Sequence record: PZ452614.1
DNA from: a phage
Direction: 5' to 3' (one strand)
DNA length: 39,092 nucleotides
Both the position numbers and the translations under genes were made by a program. A model generated the notes under the pieces. The model was not told the DNA's origin. It saw only the letters and a program-made list of their open reading frames with translations, and ran no database searches. The first letter of the stretch is position 1; every line of letters begins with the position of its first letter. Of this stretch, positions 1 through 39,092 are shown piece by piece.

Positions 1-962
1 AGACGTTTGCGGTACATACCGACAGTTATATGAAACACGTCATCCTGGCTGAAAGTACCCGCGCAATGAAGCAGGCAGTGATCGACCGTGACATACTTCC
101 GGTTCTTGGCAACAAAATGATGGCTGAAATTACCACATCGATGGTTCGTGATTTGTGTGACAGGATTGTCGAACGCGGTGGTCGGGCAACAGCAGTGCAG
201 GCCAGGGAGATCATCAGCAGCGTATACCGTCACGCCAATGACCGTGGTCATGGTTTGTTTAATCCTGCGGCTGACATTAAACCTTCGTCTATCGCCATAT
301 TTAAACCACGAGAGCGAACACTGACACCAGAAGAAATTGGCCTGTTCTTCCGCACGCTGGATGCCATTGGTGCTATGGGCACTATGAAAATGGCTTTAAA
401 GCTGGTGCTTATCACTATGGTTCGTAAAGGCGAATTCACCAACGCAACGTGGGATGAAATAGATTTTAAAAAATGGACATGGACAATTCCTTCAGACCGC
501 ATGAAGGGAAGCCGGGCGCACGTTATTTACCTGCCTAAACAGGCTCAGGATATATTGGTCGGGTTGCAGATGTGCGCTGGTGGAAGTGAATATCTGGTTC
601 CTGGTCGTTACAATTTCCGGAAGCCATTATCTAATGCCGCGCTGAACTCTCTGATCGACAGAACGGTGAAAATAATAAATGAAGATGGTGAGCATATTCA
701 GGGCTTCACCGTACACGATATGCGCCGTACAGCCAGTACGTTGTTGCATGAGGCTGGTTATCCTTCAGACTGGATTGAAAAGGCTCTGGCACATGAGCAG
801 AAAGGTGTGCGCGCCGTATATAACAAAGCGGAATACGCCAGACAGCGCGCCTACATGTTGCAGCAGTGGTCCGATATGATTGATTCCTGGATTAACGGGG
901 AGCATACGGATCTGATTCCGTTCTCCCCGTCGAAGTTTGAGAAGTGGATGGCGGGGGAATAA
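1..962 (+). CDS. int: Tyrosine integrase, P4/IntA-type, C-terminal part; continues in frame from 38804..39092 across the window junction
   Basis: No stop between position 3 and the ATG at 30; C-terminal catalytic region resembles P4-family integrases (…HDMRRTASTLLHEAGY…ALAHE…VRAVYNKAEY); frame matches the truncated ORF at the window end. Confidence 0.9.
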   Translation, partial: TFAVHTDSYMKHVILAESTRAMKQAVIDRDILPVLGNKMMAEITTSMVRDLCDRIVERGGRATAVQAREIISSVYRHANDRGHGLFNPAADIKPSSIAIFKPRERTLTPEEIGLFFRTLDAIGAMGTMKMALKLVLITMVRKGEFTNATWDEIDFKKWTWTIPSDRMKGSRAHVIYLPKQAQDILVGLQMCAGGSEYLVPGRYNFRKPLSNAALNSLIDRTVKIINEDGEHIQGFTVHDMRRTASTLLHEAGYPSDWIEKALAHEQKGVRAVYNKAEYARQRAYMLQQWSDMIDSWINGEHTDLIPFSPSKFEKWMAGE

Positions 963-965
963 CGT

Positions 966-1160
966 TTAATTATTCTGCTGATTTTCTTCCATCTCGGCTT
1001 CTGCTGCCAGTGATTCAATTTTATCTGCGAATATTGCTGACAGTGTTGCAAATTCAGCATCAGTGACAGCGGGAATTGGAACAAACCTTATCCCGCTGTG
1101 TGCAAGCATGTTTGCAGTTTCAAGGCATTTCCTTAAATCTGCTGGTGATGCCCTGTTCAT
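966..1160 (-). CDS. Hypothetical small protein (64 aa) with acidic C-terminus
   Basis: Internal ATG at 1160 overlaps the methyltransferase stop (ATGA overlap); no recognisable family. Confidence 0.45.
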   Translation of the reverse strand: MNRASPADLRKCLETANMLAHSGIRFVPIPAVTDAEFATLSAIFADKIESLAAEAEMEENQQNN

Positions 1161-1807
1161 GCTGCACGCTCCTGCCCCTGGTTGTCTGTTGGTGACAGCG
1201 GAGCATTGCTGAATGCATTTGTTAATCCGCCAATATCCAACGCGTATCCAGGGTGTAGTTGCACTGCCGGGTCTTCGCACTGATTACCCCAAACATCGAA
1301 GCCATGAGACGACTGGCGGGCGAACAGTTCAATGCGAGAAACATCGCCTAACAATTGCACAAGTTTTTCACGAACGACATCTGGTTTTCTTGAATGCTCA
1401 AGCCGCGGTGCGGTAAATGACTGAACGATCCCTGCATTAATGCGCGTAGGTAGTTTTCCCTTTACCGCAAACAGGCAATCTTCACTATTGGCGCGAGTCA
1501 TGTGCCCCATACCCATAACCAGTTTATCTGGTTGTCGACTACCACATTTTATCCACGTGAAGCCCTTCATCGTCATCAGACGAAATCCCCAGGCTTCAAC
1601 AACTTTTAGTGCTTCGAGTGGTTGTGTTGGCACCCACCACATGGCCAACAGACAGTTTTCATCGGCCAAATCCCACGCAGGAAGGCGGCAGATATCCAGC
1701 ACACTCATAACCGGATATTTAAAACCGGCACCGCGATTACCATCTGCGGCTTTGTCCCGGTATACCCAGGGTGGATCTGCATAGATTAGTGTGTATTTCT
1801 TAGTCAT
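1157..1807 (-). CDS. DNA N6-adenine methyltransferase, MT-A70-like
   Basis: YADPPW motif near N-terminus; GGGGTGG Shine-Dalgarno before ATG at 1807; roughly 216 aa. Confidence 0.8.
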   Translation of the reverse strand: MTKKYTLIYADPPWVYRDKAADGNRGAGFKYPVMSVLDICRLPAWDLADENCLLAMWWVPTQPLEALKVVEAWGFRLMTMKGFTWIKCGSRQPDKLVMGMGHMTRANSEDCLFAVKGKLPTRINAGIVQSFTAPRLEHSRKPDVVREKLVQLLGDVSRIELFARQSSHGFDVWGNQCEDPAVQLHPGYALDIGGLTNAFSNAPLSPTDNQGQERAA

Positions 1808-2099
1808 AAACCACCCCACAACATCCTATGCCGCTATAGTCGCCACGGCGAAGGCCGTTACCTTTTGTGATACATTGGTCCCTGCGAACCGCGATCCTTG
1901 CACGTTCAACATCACCAGAAGCAACATCCATACACTGAAGCCAAAGGTGAGCGGCAATGCGGAACTGCCCTTTTTTCTCTCTTTCAATCGCGCGTTTTTC
2001 GATCTCTATCGCCGCAGGAGTAACGGCGACAATCTTTGACGGACTGCGCATTGAAACCTTATTCATGTGATATTTTTCAAGTCGGCTTAACTTTCTCAC
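1800..2099 (-). CDS. Hypothetical protein (99 aa)
   Basis: ORF with GTG start preceded by AGAGGG; overlaps methyltransferase start by 8 bp, suggesting co-translation. Confidence 0.45.
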   Translation of the reverse strand: MRKLSRLEKYHMNKVSMRSPSKIVAVTPAAIEIEKRAIEREKKGQFRIAAHLWLQCMDVASGDVERARIAVRRDQCITKGNGLRRGDYSGIGCCGVVYD

Positions 2100-2208
2100 T
2101 TAATCCAACCCTCTCTGAAAATTAATGCCAGCAGATAAAGCCATGCTGAAACAGAGGCCAGGAATAAGTACCATCCTGACCATTTGCTCCAGTGCCTTAG
2201 CAGCGCAC

Positions 2209-2457
2209 TCATGCAGCGTTGCTCACGGGACGATATACACGTTGCTGAACAGGAGGTTTTTTACCCTGGAACTCTGCCGGGCTTGCTGCCTGACGTTCAT
2301 CAAGCCAACGCTCAACTTCGTCACGGTTCCATGCGCAGCGTTTGTCAGTGATATACCAGCGTTTAGGAAATTCCCCTGCGCGCTCCATACGGTCGATAGT
2401 GCTCCATGACAGTGGCACCACCGCCAGGAGTTCCTTCTTACCTAATGCACCTTTCAT
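2209..2457 (-). CDS. AlpA/Vis-like HTH excisionase/regulator
   Basis: 82 aa; …VPLSWSTIDRMERAGEFPKRWYITDKRCAWNRDEVERWL… matches the AlpA pattern; Shine-Dalgarno AGAGAGG upstream. Confidence 0.8.
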   Translation of the reverse strand: MKGALGKKELLAVVPLSWSTIDRMERAGEFPKRWYITDKRCAWNRDEVERWLDERQAASPAEFQGKKPPVQQRVYRPVSNAA

Positions 2458-2506
2458 AAATACCTCTCTTGGTTGCAGTGCGGCGCGTGTGGCGCCGCGG
2501 TGGTGG

Positions 2507-4267
2507 TTACATAGATGTTTCGTTTAATTCTTCCCGACGAACGCTGTAAACGTCGGTGGCTTTTGCCAGCAGTTCGTCATCATCTGAAAGTTTTTGTGCA
2601 ATGTATTTGTAAGCCTTATCCAGTTCGGAGACAGTGCTGTAATTCATCGCTGCGCTGGTAAAGGCCATCAGCATTTCTTCTGGATCACGGCTATCCGCTT
2701 TACGAGTTTGCTCATCAGGCTTTTTCACTGGTTTAGCGTTGATCAGACTGTTCATTCCCGCAGCAGTGGTCGTTTGCGGAGTAATGTCTCGCTCAACGCG
2801 CGGTGCCGTTTCCTGTAATTCGTCTGGTGTGTAGACGCCCATGATTACGTCAGGACAGTGCAAGCGAGACCAGCGTTTTGTCGCAAGGTATGCGAGTTGT
2901 TGTTTCGGATCACTGGCCCAAAGTGTGGAGTTTCTTACCTGTGCTTGAGACAGCATTAACTCAAGCACTCGAGGTTGATCCTCGCCCTTCATGGTTGCCC
3001 ATACGCGAACACCGCAGCCTTCTTCGTCTTTTAGAGTCCAGCCTGGTGCGATATATGGATTGCCGTTTTTGGATGTTTTCTCAACAAACTTACCGATCAC
3101 GCGTTCCCACGGCCCGAACCACTCGTAGTTGATGCGATCTTTTGTTGGCGACATCGTTGAGATAACTGCGTTTACTAATTGGGCTTCATAACCTAGCGTG
3201 CCGTTCACAACATGGGTTTTCTGAGCCACGGCAAACGGGTTCATTCCCCACTGCGCAGCCTGCATTGCCACGGCCATGCAATCAGCTGGTTTCCCGGCGA
3301 GGTGCGCCGGTACCGTTACGCGGCTTTGCGCCATTACCTCGGCGAATTTCATCAGTTGGTTCAAGCCGTCTGGGCTGAAAATAGTTGCAGCAGTTCCAGC
3401 GATTGCTGTGTCTACTGGTGCGTTGATGTTTGCGATGTCGTTGCTCATATGTACATATCCTGTTTTGCGTGCCCACTCAGGGCGTTTAATGATTTCCACA
3501 CCGCCCCATTCATCATTTATGCGGCATTCGTGATAGGTATTCAGATCCCGGCGGAACAGAGCGTGCCCGGCATCGACATCCGGCGCATCCAGCTCGAACA
3601 CGCGTACCGGATACCGACCACAATCAATGCTTTCGCTCACGGCAAGAAAGAAAAAACCATGCGGCTGACCAGTAACCCTCATTGCGCCTTCGCGGTACAT
3701 TGCGTCCTGCACGTGGTAGCGGAATTCCTCGATGTGGCGTGCAAAACGGTCCATATCTGCAACCTTTTTCACGTCGACGATCACGTTGTGCTCGTTCAGC
3801 CATTTGTCTGGACGAATGCGGCACAACTCACCAGTATCTTCATCATTCCAGTACATTGATGCTTCGCAGAAACCAGGTGCTTCCAGCATCCAGCGTGCCG
3901 CCGGGTGAGCCATTGCGCTATCACGCATCAGCTCCAGTTTCCGCCACTGCTCGGCATCAAGTACCGTAATCCCCATATCCGCTACATCACGAAGAAATGC
4001 TTCTTCGTCAGCTTTACCTTGTTTCGTCCGACGATCGAACTTCGGTGAAACAATGAAGCGTTTGTCGAATTCTCCAGGCTCCAGAAGCAGACAGTGCAAT
4101 GCGGTTCCAATATCCAGTGCAGACTTTTTCTCTTCGTCTTCTGGTGCTGCCTGGACCCATTTAAGAAGCGACGGATTCTTGGCAACCATGTCCAGTTGCG
4201 ACTTACTCACGCCGTCACCGGCGTGGTAGTCTTCGTTGCTGATGTCGAAATAAATTCCCGGTTTCAT
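2507..4267 (-). CDS. PD-(D/E)XK exonuclease (RecE/Exo VIII-like N-terminal domain) fused to a C-terminal domain of uncertain identity, possibly RecT-like annealase
   Basis: N-terminus DISNEDYHAGDGVSKSQL… typical of exodeoxyribonuclease VIII PDDEXK-like proteins; continuous 586-aa ORF. Confidence 0.7.
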   Translation of the reverse strand: MKPGIYFDISNEDYHAGDGVSKSQLDMVAKNPSLLKWVQAAPEDEEKKSALDIGTALHCLLLEPGEFDKRFIVSPKFDRRTKQGKADEEAFLRDVADMGITVLDAEQWRKLELMRDSAMAHPAARWMLEAPGFCEASMYWNDEDTGELCRIRPDKWLNEHNVIVDVKKVADMDRFARHIEEFRYHVQDAMYREGAMRVTGQPHGFFFLAVSESIDCGRYPVRVFELDAPDVDAGHALFRRDLNTYHECRINDEWGGVEIIKRPEWARKTGYVHMSNDIANINAPVDTAIAGTAATIFSPDGLNQLMKFAEVMAQSRVTVPAHLAGKPADCMAVAMQAAQWGMNPFAVAQKTHVVNGTLGYEAQLVNAVISTMSPTKDRINYEWFGPWERVIGKFVEKTSKNGNPYIAPGWTLKDEEGCGVRVWATMKGEDQPRVLELMLSQAQVRNSTLWASDPKQQLAYLATKRWSRLHCPDVIMGVYTPDELQETAPRVERDITPQTTTAAGMNSLINAKPVKKPDEQTRKADSRDPEEMLMAFTSAAMNYSTVSELDKAYKYIAQKLSDDDELLAKATDVYSVRREELNETSM

Positions 4268-4563
4268 GCCGCGTCCCTCTGTCCATCAAGCTGATCCGCC
4301 AGATCCCAGCGGGCGATAATTGCCATTGCCTCTCGCCGATAGGCATCCATCAGTTCTTCGAACTCAGGGCTGTCTTTAGCAGCCTCCAGTACTTCCTGAC
4401 GAACGCCTTTGCCTGTTACAACGTCAAAAGTTGAGGACAGTTGATGAAGTCGGATGCTCTCAATCAGTTCAACTTGTCGGTCATATAGCTGTTCTGACAG
4501 GCGGTAGTCCTTGTCGAATGCCAGCATGATTTTTTGAAGATTTTTCTGCTGATTAACGTTCAT
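4264..4563 (-). CDS. Hypothetical protein (about 99 aa), first sizeable gene of the leftward early operon
   Basis: ATG at 4563 preceded by GGAGGG; stop overlaps exonuclease start (ATGA). Confidence 0.5.
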   Translation of the reverse strand: MNVNQQKNLQKIMLAFDKDYRLSEQLYDRQVELIESIRLHQLSSTFDVVTGKGVRQEVLEAAKDSPEFEELMDAYRREAMAIIARWDLADQLDGQRDAA

Positions 4564-4565
4564 TA

Positions 4566-4718
4566 TCAGCCCTCCCATATCTCGTTATCGTTGGCTACAT
4601 CGCGAGCTTCTTTGCTGACGAAAGCCCACTTAATGCCTTCCTGTAAGGTGCGGAACTTCCAGCTCATGAATCCGCATGCAGTAACGCAGTACCAACCGTT
4701 GATGATTTTCCACTGCAT
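4566..4718 (-). CDS. Possible 50-aa leader ORF immediately downstream of the leftward promoter
   Basis: ATG at 4718 to stop at 4566; weak ribosome-binding site; not in the supplied track (under 60 aa). Confidence 0.25.
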   Translation of the reverse strand: MQWKIINGWYCVTACGFMSWKFRTLQEGIKWAFVSKEARDVANDNEIWEG

Positions 4719-4737
4719 AACTTGTTACCTCGGTCTG

Positions 4738-4814
4738 TTACCGTTGAGGTAATAATTATGCGTATCTGGTTTGATGTCAATAGATATGAGTTAAAAAAAT
4801 TACCCGTTAGGTAA
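4738..4814 (-). promoter_or_regulatory. Leftward early promoter (PL-like) with two flanking TTACC-N5-GGTAA operators
   Basis: Minus-strand -35 TTGACA (4780..4775), 16-bp spacer, -10 TAATTA (4758..4753); operators at 4738..4752 and 4800..4814. Confidence 0.55.
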
Positions 4815-4826
4815 TCGAATAGGCAA

Positions 4827-4850
4827 TAAAAAAGCCGCCATAAGGCGGCT
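4827..4850 (-). terminator. Rho-independent terminator downstream of the repressor gene
   Basis: Stem agccgcc/ggcggct with loop ataa; U-run on the minus strand (plus A-run 4827..4833). Confidence 0.6.
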
Positions 4851-4871
4851 TACTTACTGAAAAATATGATT

Positions 4872-5456
4872 TTATTGTTTGTTTTTTTCGTTCTGGTTGA
4901 TGACAAATTCAATGTAACTTTCGATCTTTGCCTTCTCTGTTTCAGGTAACAATGCGTAGCGCGAGCGGTCATAGTTGATAGTCGCGGGGTCGTGCGGGTG
5001 AATCAGTAATTCATATCCGTGACGCCCAAATGCGGATGCAACATTCTCCAGGGTGGAAATGGAAACGCTGACCTCATTGTTTAACAGGCGGCTGATTGTT
5101 ACCTGGGCGACGCCGGATGCGCGGTGAAGTTTTCCCTGCGTTGAAAGGTCGCGGCTTTCGCTCATCCAGCGTTCCAGGTTGTGAGCCGCCAGTTGACCAA
5201 TGTCGCTTGGTCCGACAGGCTGAAAACCTTCCTGAGAAAGCGAGCGATCGATATCAAGCCAGTTACGGGGTTTATTGGCGGCAGCTTCAATTTTTCGCGC
5301 AACCTGGTCGCCGATAACCTTCTTGCCAAGAGCCCAGCGGTTTACCAGATTTGCCTGAGTTCCAAGTTTTTCTGCCATCCGCGTCTGAACACCATTGAAT
5401 TCACGGTCGATCAAGTCGTTGAGATTTTGCCTGCGGACGTCCTGGATACTTTTCAT
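4872..5456 (-). CDS. CI-like phage repressor with two HTH regions and no S24 peptidase domain
   Basis: 194 aa; HTH-like segments near residues 25-45 and 115-135; divergent from a Cro-like gene; located between the leftward and rightward operator clusters. Confidence 0.75.
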   Translation of the reverse strand: MKSIQDVRRQNLNDLIDREFNGVQTRMAEKLGTQANLVNRWALGKKVIGDQVARKIEAAANKPRNWLDIDRSLSQEGFQPVGPSDIGQLAAHNLERWMSESRDLSTQGKLHRASGVAQVTISRLLNNEVSVSISTLENVASAFGRHGYELLIHPHDPATINYDRSRYALLPETEKAKIESYIEFVINQNEKNKQ

Positions 5457-5511
5457 TTTCTGGAAAATCGCCTCATATATGAATCAGTAGATGATTCAAT
5501 TTAAAGCAATA

Positions 5512-5578
5512 TTACCCAACAGGTAAATGCACCCCATAGGTAACTATCCTTGATTTTTGTTACCTTATGGGTGAATAT
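5512..5578. promoter_or_regulatory. Rightward operator cluster (three TTACC-N5-GGTAA-type sites) overlapping a candidate PR
   Basis: Sites 5512..5526 (perfect), 5529..5543 (GCACC half), 5560..5574 (GGTGA half); -35 TTGATT 5550..5555 and -10 GAATAT 5573..5578. Confidence 0.6.
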
Positions 5579-5610
5579 TTATTATCTGAAATAAATATCA
5601 GGCAATAGCT

Positions 5611-5841
5611 ATGAGCGATAACGGACATTTCGATTTCAAAAAGCACTGGCTTGCACTTACTCCGGATGAGCGTGAAGCCTTCGCACAGGAAGCCGGAACG
5701 ACGAGTCACTATATCCAGACTCACTTAACAGGTAAGCGCAAAATGCCAGGTAAGGTATTGATGAATGGGCTTTTTAAAGCCTGTAAAACAAGACAATGGC
5801 TGCGCTCAAAAGCAGAACTGGCATACTTCTTCTACTCATGA
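5611..5841 (+). CDS. Cro-like small HTH regulator
   Basis: 76 aa; HTH …EAFAQEAGTTSHYIQTHLTGKRKMP…; divergent from the repressor. Confidence 0.6.
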   Translation: MSDNGHFDFKKHWLALTPDEREAFAQEAGTTSHYIQTHLTGKRKMPGKVLMNGLFKACKTRQWLRSKAELAYFFYS

Positions 5842-5862
5842 TATCCAGCCACAACCCTCTGT

Positions 5863-5886
5863 AGACCGCCATCCGGCGGTCTTTTC
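5863..5886 (+). terminator. Weak terminator-like hairpin after the Cro-like gene
   Basis: Stem agaccgcc/ggcggtct, loop atcc, short T-run. Confidence 0.4.
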
Positions 5887-5991
5887 ATATCTATTCGTAC
5901 CTCAAAGGTAATAAAAAACCAAATATGGTTGATCTTTTTTTTGTGTCAGCACAAAATAACCGTAATCCCAATACTAATAACAGGGCTTACC

Positions 5992-6192
5992 ATGGAAATC
6001 ATTACACGTATTGATGCCGCAAAGCGCGGACTTAAACGCTATTACACCGGAAAACAATGTAAGCACGGACATGACAGTGAACGCTGGGTTTACAACGGAC
6101 ACTGTGTTGAGTGCACCATGGAATCAAACCGTCGCATCAGGGCAGAGATTAAGCAGATCATGATTAATTCCTCCCCACAACACTCAAGCTGA
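5992..6192 (+). CDS. Small putative zinc-binding protein in the cII-equivalent position
   Basis: ATG at 5992 (MEIITR…); C-K-H-G-H … C-V-E-C motif; preceded by operator-like site 5897..5911. Confidence 0.45.
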   Translation: MEIITRIDAAKRGLKRYYTGKQCKHGHDSERWVYNGHCVECTMESNRRIRAEIKQIMINSSPQHSS

Positions 6193-26933: not shown

Positions 26934-28732
26934 GTTACTTTGGCCTTAATCCAGTAAACCAGAATCAGCAGCTTGACGAAGCAGCATTAAATCCAGTTGG
27001 CTTTAACAGCGATGTTGGTTTTTTCGACAATGCTGTAGGAGCGGCATTGTCTGGTTTGTACTCCGGGCTGGTGGCAAAGCCAGATCAGTTGCTATGGGCA
27101 GGGATGGATAAAATCGTATCCCCGATTGCTCAGCTTGTTAACGAAAACACCTCGCTCAATGACACTTCAGTTTCATACATTGCTGAGCAGAGAAAACTAG
27201 CAGAGCAGCAGGTTAAGCGGCTGACGCCTGATGCCGCGACAACCGGAATCGCCGGGCAGGTCCTTTATGGGTTGTTCGATATGGGCGGGCAGGCTGTTGT
27301 CGGTACAACGCTCGGTGGTCCGGTCGGAGGTGCTGCGGCGGTAACTTCTCTACAGGGTTTTTCTGAGTTTGAACGGTTGACAGCACAGGGTGTTGATTTC
27401 AGGACGGCGCAGGAAGCGGGATTAGTGCAGGGTATTACTGCTGGTGCTGGAACACTGATCCCTATGAGCCTCGGGTTACGTGCTGGTGGTGCGCTGGCGG
27501 AAGGTGTGGCGGCTCAGCTTGCGCGGACGGGTGAAAGTTCAGTGCGACGCGCCGCAGCAACAGCAGTACGTGCAACGCCAGATATTGCCTATGCCGCAGG
27601 TACAAATATTGCGTTCGGTATGGCACAGCGTGGGCTTACTGCAAAAACGCTTCGTGATGGTGGCTATAGCGAAATGGCTAACCAGTATGATGTGTTGGAT
27701 CGACAGGCAATTGCTATTGATGCTGTTCTTGGGGTGGCGTTTGGTGGTGTCGGCAGATTTATTAACTCTCGAGGCGAGTCTACAAGCGCACCAAATTTTT
27801 CACCAGTTGATGTCGATGCTGCACTGGCGGCGAATGCCGCTCATCATGCTGAAATTGATATTGCTCCCGGCGTGCCGAGCAACGTGCTTTCGCGCAATTC
27901 TCACATTCAGGCTCTGCGAAAAGCTATGTCTGATGTTAGCCAGGGGAGACCTGTAGACGTTGCCAGCATTGTTGAGTCTGCATCTTTCAGTGAAATTCTA
28001 GGGCGCAAGAGTCTGCTGTCTCAGGCAGTTAATGAGGCTCTGTCATCTGTAGATGATGGAGTAACGGCGCGCGCTATAGAAAATCGGTTGCTTGAAGAAC
28101 AGGCCGCGCAGCTTTTGCCGCGTGGCGATAGACAGGTTTACCAGTCTGAAATCGCTAATAGCCAACGAATTATTGAAAATCTCACTGAACAGCGCGCACA
28201 AATTCTTGCAGAAGAGCCAACCGGTAGCGGTAAGGCTTTATCTCGTGCTCGATCAGATAAACAGGCCAGACTTCGCGATATTGACCAACGAATCCGGCAG
28301 GCACAAGAACGCCTGGAATTTTCTCGTAACGCGTTGGCACCGCATGAGCCTGGTGGTCAGTTTTTTGAAGCTCGAGCAGAACTGGCACGGCGACTGCAGG
28401 TAGAAAGTGAACTTAATGCTCAGGCTGTTTCATTCTATAAAACAGCAGATGTCAGGACGCCAGACGAAGTAGCTCCTTTTGAGCCTGATAAAATATTGCA
28501 ACAGGCAGAACAAAAAATGATGGCGGATCAGGCAGGAGATATTGATCTGCGCATAGCTGAAGACTCGCTGCTTGAATCACCTGACATGATAATTACCGTG
28601 CTGGATGATGATGGTAATCCACAATCGCGCAGCGCGCGTGAAGTACTGGATGAAGCGAACAGGGAAAGTGAGCAGGCAATACAGGATTCCAGCCTGTTTG
28701 ATGTCGCTGTGGCGTGTTTCTTGAGAGGTTAA
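26930..28732 (+). CDS. Internal virion / ejection protein (600 aa)
   Basis: ATGA coupling; Gly/Ala-rich N-terminal half and helical C-terminal half. Confidence 0.55.
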   Translation: MSYFGLNPVNQNQQLDEAALNPVGFNSDVGFFDNAVGAALSGLYSGLVAKPDQLLWAGMDKIVSPIAQLVNENTSLNDTSVSYIAEQRKLAEQQVKRLTPDAATTGIAGQVLYGLFDMGGQAVVGTTLGGPVGGAAAVTSLQGFSEFERLTAQGVDFRTAQEAGLVQGITAGAGTLIPMSLGLRAGGALAEGVAAQLARTGESSVRRAAATAVRATPDIAYAAGTNIAFGMAQRGLTAKTLRDGGYSEMANQYDVLDRQAIAIDAVLGVAFGGVGRFINSRGESTSAPNFSPVDVDAALAANAAHHAEIDIAPGVPSNVLSRNSHIQALRKAMSDVSQGRPVDVASIVESASFSEILGRKSLLSQAVNEALSSVDDGVTARAIENRLLEEQAAQLLPRGDRQVYQSEIANSQRIIENLTEQRAQILAEEPTGSGKALSRARSDKQARLRDIDQRIRQAQERLEFSRNALAPHEPGGQFFEARAELARRLQVESELNAQAVSFYKTADVRTPDEVAPFEPDKILQQAEQKMMADQAGDIDLRIAEDSLLESPDMIITVLDDDGNPQSRSAREVLDEANRESEQAIQDSSLFDVAVACFLRG

Positions 28733-38803: not shown

Positions 38804-39092
38804 GTGCTTACCGATACAAAATTAAAAAACCTCAAGCCACAGGACAAACTGTACAAAGTTTCCGATCGTGACGGGCTGTATGTAGCTGTGCTTACGTCAG
38901 GTACGGTCTCGTTTCGCTATGACTACCGTATCAACGGTCGCCGCGAAACACTGGTAATCGGGCAGTATGGGCGTGACGGTATCAGCCTGGCAGAAGCGCG
39001 AGAAGAACTGATTGCTGCAAAGAAGCTGCTTAAAGCAGGCCAGTCACCGGCTGCGGCTAAACGTGACGGTATCAAAAAGATTCGTGGTGCCG
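38804..39092 (+). CDS. int: Tyrosine integrase, N-terminal part (runs off the window end; continues at 1..962)
   Basis: GTG start; …LTDTKLKNLKPQDKLYKVSDRDGLYVAV… matches the P4/IntA-family N-terminus; 96 codons plus 1 nt, which completes a codon with positions 1-2. Confidence 0.85.
   Translation, partial: MLTDTKLKNLKPQDKLYKVSDRDGLYVAVLTSGTVSFRYDYRINGRRETLVIGQYGRDGISLAEAREELIAAKKLLKAGQSPAAAKRDGIKKIRGA

Follow-up and report, generated by a model that had tools for sequence, protein, structure and literature searches.

Exchangeable neighbours of an MT-A70 methyltransferase gene beside the integrase of phage phiV10

An adenine methyltransferase gene that lies beside a phage integrase gene and overlaps a small gene on either side raises the question of whether the three work together, the small proteins serving as specificity or regulatory subunits, or are separate genes that share an operon. 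We addressed this for positions 966-2099 of a stretch of DNA of 39,092 nucleotides (the window), which is 100% identical to phage phiV10, an Escherichia coli O157 phage of the podovirus genus Uetakevirus, and agrees with its RefSeq annotation. A preliminary description had presented the trio as an orphan, probably anti-restriction, methyltransferase coupled to two uncharacterised proteins.

Gene layout at the integrase end of the operon

All three ORFs lie on the minus strand and overlap as first described. PhiV10p34 (1800..2099) encodes 99 amino acids from a GTG at 2099, and its stop shares the 8 nt ATGACTAA with the start of PhiV10p33 (1157..1807), which encodes 216 amino acids from an ATG, or 220 from an alternative upstream GTG at 1819. 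The p33 stop shares ATGA, as read from the sequence of the junction, with the start of PhiV10p32 (966..1160), a 64-amino acid protein whose ATG sits within a mechanical 104-amino acid ORF (966-1280). These are genuine genes rather than chance ORFs, as their Pfam scores exceed curated cut-offs, their PHROGs matches are full-length, and their amino acid conservation spans phages of Escherichia, Salmonella, Enterobacter and Klebsiella. The cluster is real but ordinary: its genes were already annotated, their families are known, and the sequence departs from none of them.

The cluster does adjoin the integrase gene, PhiV10p31, the two stops lying at 962 and 966, although the integrase gene is convergent with the cluster and not co-oriented. 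Its C-terminal 310 codons occupy 30..962 on the plus strand (Pfam Phage_integrase; RefSeq mapping) and its first 96 codons 38804-39092, the gene being split by the window ends.

On the other side, the same minus-strand series continues through PhiV10p35 (2096..2212), annotated in RefSeq as a 38-amino acid membrane protein (phrog_17484, E=2.6e-27), to PhiV10p36 (2209..2457), an AlpA-family excisionase/regulator of the same operon (Pfam PF05930, 24.2 bits; phrog_66, "excisionase and transcriptional regulator"). p35 overlaps p34 by GTGA and p36 by ATGA, so that tight overlaps of 4-8 nt run from the AlpA gene through to the DUF1382 gene p32. The translational coupling of p33 to its two small neighbours stands as described, but the overlaps are a property of the whole operon and no mark of a complex. 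Further upstream lies PhiV10p37 (2507..4267, minus strand), noted in RefSeq as a fusion of a RecE-like exonuclease with a RecT annealase; Pfam places DUF3799 (PDDEXK) at residues 21-254 and RecT at 310-490. This gene corresponds to the "exo" flank of an exo-xis-like region.

All promoter and terminator statements here come from a simple consensus scan. Between the cluster and the repressor gene it picked out a single promoter-like site on the minus strand, a candidate early-left (PL-like) promoter at 4752..4780 (TTGACA-17-AATTAT), whose function is presumed from its consensus match; no promoter-like or minus-strand terminator-like site was found within 966-4750. In epsilon15, a Salmonella phage and the type member of the genus, repressor operators are annotated at the equivalent position. 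A search of positions 1-6000 against Rfam (E up to 0.1) gave no RNA family match. We consider the operon layout to be established, together with the gene identities and the modular exchange described below.

Families of the encoded proteins

The small ORFs are not uncharacterised. The profile searches that had been proposed for them placed p34 in PF06069 (PerC) and p32 in PF07131 (DUF1382), both above cut-off, and p32 is a homologue of lambda Orf63, a protein that has been studied genetically and whose structure is solved.

For p32, we obtained 103.8 bits against PF07131 (cut-off 27), a match to PDB entry 8DSB over residues 2-62 (phmmer, E=5.8e-13), and about 50% identity to full-length lambda Orf63 (50% by tblastn); RefSeq likewise names it a DUF1382 family protein. 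Entry 8DSB is confirmed as lambda Orf63, which is dimeric (PMC10869804), and deletion of lambda orf63 makes induction delayed and weaker (PMC5575149, PMC10869804). In published genetics of the lambda and Phi24B Orf63 homologues, the processes affected are induction and lysogenization, and defence is not among them. By analogy with lambda Orf63, p32 is predicted to favour the lytic side of the lysis-lysogeny decision and to promote induction. The two genes occupy similar operons, running from recombination genes to int, and the lambdoid exo-xis region, like that of phiV10, contains small non-essential developmental genes. In lambda, however, orf63 comes after orf60a (DUF1317) with no methyltransferase gene beside it, whereas p32 of phiV10 adjoins one, and int is co-oriented with the operon in lambda but convergent in phiV10.

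p34 scored 30.1 bits against PF06069 (cut-off 22.6) across residues 35-80, which correspond only to model positions 5-50 of 90, in the conserved N-terminal half; thus 46 of the 90 positions are matched. It aligned over its entire length (1-99/99) with phrog_868, "transcriptional activator" (E=6e-62), and showed a weak likeness to the ANR family (NF033650, 23.6 bits) below the cut-off of 32. PF06069 includes PerC of EPEC and the prophage-encoded Pch regulators of EHEC, and p34 resembles Pch in being a small prophage-encoded protein from an O157:H7 phage. A role as a transcription regulator, of ler/LEE or of another target, is accordingly a prediction from family membership. Annotated starts differ, between GTG 2099 (99 amino acids), ATG 2066 in RefSeq (88) and ATG 2051 in PGAP (83); the 99-amino acid form is favoured because its residues 3-11 are conserved in several genera. 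An AlphaFold2 single-sequence model (mean pLDDT 48, with only a helical hairpin at residues 28-61 moderately confident) was too poor to provide a basis for a fold search, and a literature search found no paper on p34.

The claim that p33 is a DPPW-motif MT-A70 adenine methyltransferase was borne out. The protein matched all 172 positions of PF05063 (76.7 bits, cut-off 23.9) across residues 9-180 of the 220-amino acid ORF that starts at the GTG, and phrog_359 with E=4e-119. DPPW occupies residues 11-14 (YADPPWVY), near the N-terminus and ahead of the SAM-binding region, which is the motif order of beta-class enzymes; among 12 aligned homologues D11 and P13 are invariant, and P12 and W14 are kept in at least 90%. 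Among proteins of solved structure, p33 comes closest to ciliate MTA1 (E about 1e-12) and METTL3 (1e-5), whose catalytic domains align over residues 3-172, and SAM-dependent methyl transfer to adenine N6 is predicted.

Judged by sequence, p33 is the phiV10 orthologue of M.EcoGV and M.EcoPA8orf6770P, MT-A70 methyltransferases of Stx2a phages (Gong, Chakraborty and Koudelka, NAR 2023, PMC10810198). It is 82% identical to the Stx-phage enzyme over the catalytic domain (153/187, residues 1-187) with DPPW in the same place, and both genes lie towards the integrase end of the early-left region and are followed by a DUF1382 gene. Similarity ends at residue 187, beyond which phiV10 has a longer and unrelated C-terminal tail. 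We considered this tail as a marker of partner choice and rejected it: the phiV10-type tail is found with PerC, winged-helix or DGQHR genes upstream, and so does not track the neighbour. A literature search returned no experiment on phiV10 p33. M.EcoMIV of the ST131 strain EC958, pursued as a methylome lead, proved to be a PF02086 enzyme and not an MT-A70.

Exchange of neighbouring genes

Comparison of about 100 related loci showed free exchange of the genes on either side of the methyltransferase, indicating that the cluster was assembled from independent cassettes. Directly upstream of MT-A70, various phages carry PerC, a 75-amino acid winged-helix protein, DUF1317, a DndB-like protein, PNB-2, a 67-amino acid protein, DUF4060 or a 55-amino acid protein, and the overlap of this upstream gene with the start of the methyltransferase is 4-11 nt in each case save epsilon15, where a 46-nt gap follows gp30.

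Our IMG/VR survey took in 80 loci that carry this methyltransferase (79-99% identical). PerC directly adjoined it upstream in 47, and was separated from it by other genes in 22; the downstream gene was DUF1382 at 32 loci and a NinI phosphatase at 14, the remainder having other genes there. DUF1382 stood upstream of the methyltransferase in two of the 80. A sample of 57 E. coli prophages, evenly spaced among about 540, carried DUF1382 (39), the phosphatase (13) or Ant (5) downstream, so that the phosphatase or Ant takes the place of DUF1382 in about 30% of E. coli prophages, while the methyltransferase remains 96-98% identical. PerC appears equally independent of the methyltransferase: the GVVYD C-terminus of p34 is kept in all Uetakevirus relatives regardless of the following gene, and is unchanged before the methyltransferase, a 35-amino acid ORF, DUF1317 or a DGQHR gene. 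Counting against the cassette view, DUF1382 and the methyltransferase recur in three arrangements, DUF1382 coming after the methyltransferase in phiV10, after it but with a 23-nt overlap in Stx phages, and before it in L063/L064; this is above the expectation under full independence.

The same pattern is visible within the genus. Epsilon15 (gp28-gp33) shares with phiV10 a skeleton of AlpA, a 38-amino acid membrane protein, PerC-like protein (78% identical), MT-A70 (gp29; 77% identical) and a convergent int. It differs in that a 35-amino acid ORF and a gap separate the PerC gene from the methyltransferase, which is followed by another small gene and not by DUF1382. Roughly a tenth of complete E. 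coli genomes, O157:H7, ExPEC and APEC strains among them, contain the phiV10 cluster itself with at least 95% identity.

Specificity and role of the methyltransferase

We favour, at a probability of roughly 60%, a joint explanation in which the cluster would be the distal end of an early-left operon made of independent cassettes, with p33 a Dam-like methyltransferase acting alone, p32 an Orf63-like protein and p34 a PerC-type protein. The GATC specificity of p33 is inferred, as are the expression timing and biological role of the cluster.

The GATC specificity of p33 would be an extrapolation from homologues. Overproduction of M.EcoGV in the absence of PNB-2 leads to GATC methylation in vivo, a result of Fang et al. 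2012 that we cite as relayed in PMC10810198; the link to p33 runs through the description there of M.EcoGV as "highly similar" to the Stx-phage family. The authors consider that the GATC result may be an overexpression artefact, and purified M.EcoPA8orf6770P alone had almost no in vitro activity on GATC-containing DNA (PMC10810198). Two other GATC-specific MT-A70s, the bacterial M.EfaBMDam of Tn1549 and p32 of the Serratia phage BZS1 (PMC7556043), share the Pfam family and similar size of phiV10 p33, and the BZS1 protein is, like it, encoded by a temperate phage near the integrase, and is GATC-specific when expressed alone (PMC7556043). The BZS1/HK639 branch, however, is only about 45-49% identical to p33 (measured against HK639_35, itself reported as 75% identical to BZS1 p32; PMC7556043) and has a 23-amino acid insertion absent from phiV10, which leaves the specificity of p33 inferred. 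PhiV10 has 153 GATC sites (observed/expected 0.79), ample substrate for a GATC enzyme. We also asked whether avoidance or clustering of GATC sites hints at function, and discarded the idea: the densest 600-nt window, with 8 sites, was not unusual (P=0.56). The host already has Dam, which counts against a second GATC enzyme.

Anti-restriction, the generic expectation for such an enzyme, loses weight because the specificity known for the family is GATC and the host is Dam-positive, and because the published phenotype of the closest studied homologue is control of prophage induction. In keeping with the preliminary description, no restriction endonuclease is annotated adjoining the cluster or elsewhere in the whole phiV10 genome, the neighbours of p33 being DUF1382, PerC, the membrane protein, AlpA and RecET, with no cognate endonuclease gene. 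p33 is most likely a Dam-like GATC enzyme that would influence phage development rather than defeat restriction.

An unlikely alternative is that p33 acts mainly as an RNA methyltransferase on 16S rRNA, raising spontaneous prophage induction through altered translation. This is what M.EcoPA8orf6770P is reported to do: bound in a 1:1 complex to PNB-2, the product of the gene upstream, it is redirected to 16S rRNA, which it methylates, and raises prophage induction (PMC10810198). The 82% identity of the catalytic domains, the presence of the RNA methyltransferase METTL3 among the closest solved relatives, and an operon place beside lysis-lysogeny modulators, which suits a developmental role, all speak for the same activity in phiV10. 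The rRNA preference, though, came from PNB-2, and phiV10 has a PerC-like gene where Stx phages have PNB-2: p34 gave no BLASTP alignment with PNB-2, and tblastn found no PNB-2 homologue in the whole phiV10 window. Moreover, the C-terminal ~27 residues of the STEC-type enzyme that are linked to PNB-2 binding and holoenzyme formation (PMC10810198) are replaced in p33 by the unrelated tail.

The reading that prompted this analysis, with p33 an orphan anti-restriction methyltransferase and p34 and/or p32 its specificity or regulatory subunits, is one that we consider improbable, although the precedent behind it is sound. MT-A70 enzymes are typically heteromeric; the 82%-identical Stx-phage enzyme needs upstream PNB-2 at 1:1 for specific activity (PMC10810198); and p33 barely exceeds its catalytic domain. 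Several relatives, too, carry a nucleic-acid-binding protein directly upstream (the Tyrion winged-helix protein, a DndB-like protein or PNB-2), and the three DUF1382 arrangements span two phage groups. The precedent does not extend to the phiV10 proteins, since p34 has no detectable similarity to PNB-2 and both neighbours are exchanged in close relatives: p34 keeps its position in the genus with other genes between it and the methyltransferase, DUF1382 gives way to phosphatase or Ant, and lambda has DUF1382 without any methyltransferase. Activity of the BZS1 enzyme alone argues against a need for subunits, and GATC methylation would add little protection in Dam-positive hosts. PADLOC, whose library comprises defence and not anti-defence proteins, recognised p33 as no more than a generic type II methyltransferase, while p32, p34 and PNB-2 were all without a match.

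In a more general form of this idea, the ~190-amino acid MT-A70 core would be a catalytic unit that moves between phages, its target set in each by the small nucleic-acid-binding protein encoded next to it; the phiV10 partner would be p34 or p32, and m6A on a specific RNA or DNA target would set the induction rate. We regard this as a long shot. Candidate partners elsewhere would be PNB-2 in Stx phages, the 75-amino acid winged-helix protein in Tyrion, and the DndB-like protein in SPN1S-type phages.

Accessory slots of temperate phages often hold defence or counter-defence genes, and the slot before int is variable (DUF1382, NinI phosphatase, Ant, other small genes), with a DndB-like gene sporadically inserted beside the methyltransferase; yet it is very unlikely that the small ORFs, perhaps with the methyltransferase, are anti-defence cargo unrelated to development, given the induction and lysogenization genetics of the Orf63 homologues, the standing of PerC-like p34 as a conserved core gene of the genus, and the small proteins unmatched in the defence library of PADLOC.

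Returning to the joint explanation that we favour, positions 966-2099 would form the promoter-distal end of a repressor-controlled early-left operon, the phiV10 counterpart of the lambdoid exo-xis region. From the PL-like promoter, it would proceed through two small genes, RecE-RecT, AlpA/Xis and the 38-amino acid membrane protein to p34, p33 and p32, its final gene, and run into the 3' end of the convergent integrase gene. The last three would be independent cassettes shuffled by recombination. p33 would be produced upon derepression of the operon, at infection or induction, and most probably acts alone as a Dam-like GATC N6-adenine DNA methyltransferase, homodimeric like other beta-class enzymes. 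The likely gain would be that fast-replicating phage DNA stays fully GATC-methylated, or that the lysis-lysogeny and induction balance is shifted, or both; escape from classical restriction enzymes seems a less likely benefit. p32 may act like lambda Orf63, as a small dimeric pro-lytic developmental protein, and p34 as a small PerC-type transcription modulator.

The closest studied homologue of p33 alters Stx-prophage induction and virulence. Since the cluster is common in E. coli and the homologue has these effects, placing p33 as a redundant Dam, as an rRNA methyltransferase or as something else would help in understanding prophage control.

Identity and arrangement of the cluster

The region at 900-2500 matched Escherichia phage phiV10 (NC_007804.2 / DQ126339.2) with 100% identity. 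phiV10 is a podovirus of E. coli O157:H7, temperate and epsilon15-like (genus Uetakevirus). The window spans its whole genome in circularly permuted form, the first base lying within the integrase gene (int, first 96 codons at 38804-39092) and corresponding to record position 27216; the RefSeq record is 12 nt longer. The cluster (966-2099, minus strand) comprises the annotated genes PhiV10p32, p33 and p34, and a search of 5426 complete E. coli genomes found it at ≥95% identity in approximately 540. It is already known, belonging to a published, annotated genome in which the family of each cluster gene has at least one studied member.

All three ORFs were confirmed on the minus strand at the positions first described: p32 (64 aa, 966-1160), the p33 methyltransferase (216 aa, 1157-1807, with YADPPWVY at residues 9-16) and p34 (99 aa from a GTG start, 1800-2099), with junctions of ATGA and ATGACTAA. 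Each scored above its curated-family threshold (DUF1382, 103.8 bits; MT-A70, 76.7 bits; PerC, 30.1 bits) and the protein sequences are conserved in phages from four genera, indicating that these are real genes and not chance ORFs. The overlaps are not special to the trio, as similar ones join the next upstream genes, GTGA with the gene for a 38-aa membrane protein and ATGA with that for an AlpA-type excisionase. The proximity to the integrase gene was likewise correct, but int and the cluster converge, their stop codons lying at 962 and 966.

In our reading the cluster forms the distal end of a repressor-controlled early-left operon, predicted from a consensus scan and synteny with epsilon15. 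An AlpA/Xis-like gene, a fused RecE-RecT gene and two small genes lie upstream on the same strand. The scan placed a promoter-like site at 4780-4752 (minus strand), with the repressor gene terminator beyond it; from 4750 down to 966 it detected neither a promoter-like site nor a terminator-like one on the minus strand, and no Rfam family matched in 1-6000 (E up to 0.1). In epsilon15, repressor operators are annotated at the position corresponding to the promoter-like site. Since only 3 nt separate the convergent stop codons, and the scan found no terminator at this convergence (950-975), early-left transcription may run antisense into int. RNase III sites are annotated around the epsilon15 int gene. 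The RecE-like exonuclease and RecT annealase form a single 586-aa ORF in phiV10 (2507-4267, minus strand), and are separate genes in epsilon15, PAS61 and an E. coli prophage (locus L004); the single ORF may reflect either a genuine fusion or a frameshift in the sequence as deposited.

The small flanking genes

Neither small ORF proved to be uncharacterised, as the preliminary description had held. p32 matched PDB 8DSB across nearly its full length (E=5.8e-13). The molecule name of this entry, 'Xis (Excision72)', could misdirect automatic annotation; its sequence, which is the translation of lambda orf63, and the depositing paper identify it as lambda Orf63 (DUF1382). Orf63, a member of the lambdoid exo-xis region, is a small dimer that showed no DNA binding in the single test made, and is pro-lytic, its deletion making prophage induction later and weaker (PMC10869804, PMC5575149). 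p34 belongs to the PerC family, exceeding the Pfam threshold across the half of that model which is conserved and matching phrog_868 end to end; against NCBI's ANR model it did not reach the cut-off. It belongs to the core genes of the genus, being present at the same position in epsilon15, Tyrion, SPC32N, a Klebsiella prophage and E. coli prophages, with homologs 64-100% identical and sharing the C-terminus GVVY(D/E). A single-sequence AlphaFold2 model of p34 (mean pLDDT 48) was too poor for use.

Whether p34 or p32 could be a methyltransferase partner is a reasonable question because of the precedent of PNB-2, a winged-helix protein encoded directly upstream of the Stx-phage enzyme M.EcoPA8orf6770P (PMC10810198). 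In phage P14437, PNB-2 corresponds to ORF08, an assignment that we made from the terminator sequence given in that paper. p34 showed no BLASTP similarity to it, and homologs of PNB-2, the Tyrion winged-helix protein and DndB are not encoded in the phiV10 genome. The gene directly upstream of MT-A70 varies among phages, being PerC-like in phiV10, a 35-aa ORF in epsilon15, a 75-aa winged-helix protein in Tyrion, DUF1317 in a Klebsiella prophage (ST512-KPC3phi13.3), DndB-like (DGQHR) in SPC32N and some E. coli prophages, PNB-2 in Stx phages (P14437), a 67-aa protein in P27, DUF4060 in Hafnia phage Pocitis76 and a 55-aa protein in HK639. Its overlap with the methyltransferase start is 4-11 nt in all of these except epsilon15 (46-nt gap).

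Among 80 IMG/VR loci with the same methyltransferase (79-99% identity), PerC was directly upstream in 47 and separated from it by other genes in 22, with nine in a different phage background; downstream lay DUF1382 (32/80) or a NinI-type phosphatase (14/80). A sample of 57 genomes, evenly spaced among the approximately 540 holding the cluster, contained DUF1382 (39), the phosphatase (13) or an antirepressor (five), with a DGQHR gene inserted in three. The lineage-specific C-terminal tail of p33 does not track the neighbouring gene. The lack of PNB-2 likeness, the exchanged neighbours and the tail thus argue mostly against partnership, and lambda carries DUF1382 without any methyltransferase. 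DUF1382 nonetheless adjoins the methyltransferase in three arrangements and two unrelated phage groups, exceeding the expectation of pure independence and pointing the other way. An anti-restriction enzyme with the small proteins as its subunits is improbable.

Between the methyltransferase and int, the final position of the operon varies among prophages that otherwise differ little (L003 1554-2213, minus strand; E. coli matches H180-H197), being occupied by DUF1382, a NinI-type Ser/Thr phosphatase, an AntA/AntB antirepressor or other small genes. In two of the 80 IMG/VR loci (L063 2813-3004, plus strand, and L064), DUF1382 lies immediately upstream of the methyltransferase with an ATGA overlap, in the order DUF1317, DUF1382, methyltransferase, as if the latter had joined a lambda-like orf60a-orf63 pair. 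A 355-aa DGQHR/DndB-like (ParB-fold) gene directly precedes the same MT-A70 and overlaps its start in SPN1S-type Salmonella phages and in approximately 5% of the E. coli prophages (L004 3402-4469, minus strand; L009 1437-2504, plus strand). The pair is a candidate for a modification module of two genes, and we found no description of one in these phages; a 2025 survey reported archaeal ParB-fold-MT-A70 fusions (PMC12704722).

The methyltransferase and its proposed role

The closest solved relatives of p33 are the catalytic domains of ciliate MTA1 and human METTL3, with no bacterial relative of solved structure. Epsilon15 gp29, at the equivalent operon position, is 77% identical, and the Stx2a phage enzyme, including that of the O104:H4 outbreak phage, is 82% identical over residues 1-187. 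Spontaneous induction and amoeba killing both fall when the Stx-phage enzyme is disrupted, and a mutant with DPPW changed to APPA fails to complement this defect; the purified enzyme is nearly inactive on DNA without its partner and with PNB-2 forms a 1:1 complex preferring 16S rRNA (PMC10810198). The highly similar M.EcoGV, overproduced without PNB-2, methylated GATC in vivo (PMC10810198). The same site is indicated by less closely related enzymes: p32 of Serratia phage BZS1 and the Tn1549 enzyme were GATC-specific when expressed alone, and HK639_35 is 75% identical to BZS1 p32 according to the authors (PMC7556043) and 45-49% identical to p33. In Stx2a phage F451 (L013 1585-2223, plus strand), the methyltransferase N-terminus is replaced and DPPW absent (AGADQPVQQC...), probably an inactive variant recalling the IS629-disrupted copy in phiPA2.

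As previously proposed, no restriction endonuclease adjoins the methyltransferase; none is annotated anywhere in phiV10, which also has no second methyltransferase. We favour, with a probability of roughly 60%, an explanation in which p33 would be produced from the early-left transcript upon infection or induction, and would act alone as a Dam-like adenine methyltransferase on the phage GATC sites (153 in total), with a developmental and not an anti-restriction pay-off; p32, as an Orf63-type pro-lytic factor, and p34, as a PerC-type regulator, would act separately. The gene identities and modularity are near certain, and the specificity and role of p33 stand perhaps slightly better than even. 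Methylation of rRNA, as by the Stx-phage holoenzyme, is doubtful, PNB-2 being absent from phiV10 and the C-terminal tail replaced in p33. That the cluster is anti-defence cargo is very unlikely.

Five of the 30 genomic TGATCR hexamers fall within 570 nt (12288-12857), which coordinate mapping places in the expected terS/terL region (permutation test, post hoc, P about 0.025). The P1 pac site contains Dam-methylated TGATCA/G hexamers, and the annotation of the phiV10 large terminase notes similarity to P1 PacB; the hexamers are spaced far more loosely in phiV10 than in P1. Across the window, CTAG is strongly depleted (8 observed against 32 expected, second-order Markov model), and GGCC (0.56) and AGCT (0.63) are also low.

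Beside the favoured Dam-like reading, the MT-A70 core may, at rather long odds, be a portable module retargeted by an adjacent DNA- or RNA-binding protein, here p34 or p32. This would be the sole reading of the cluster with some novelty.
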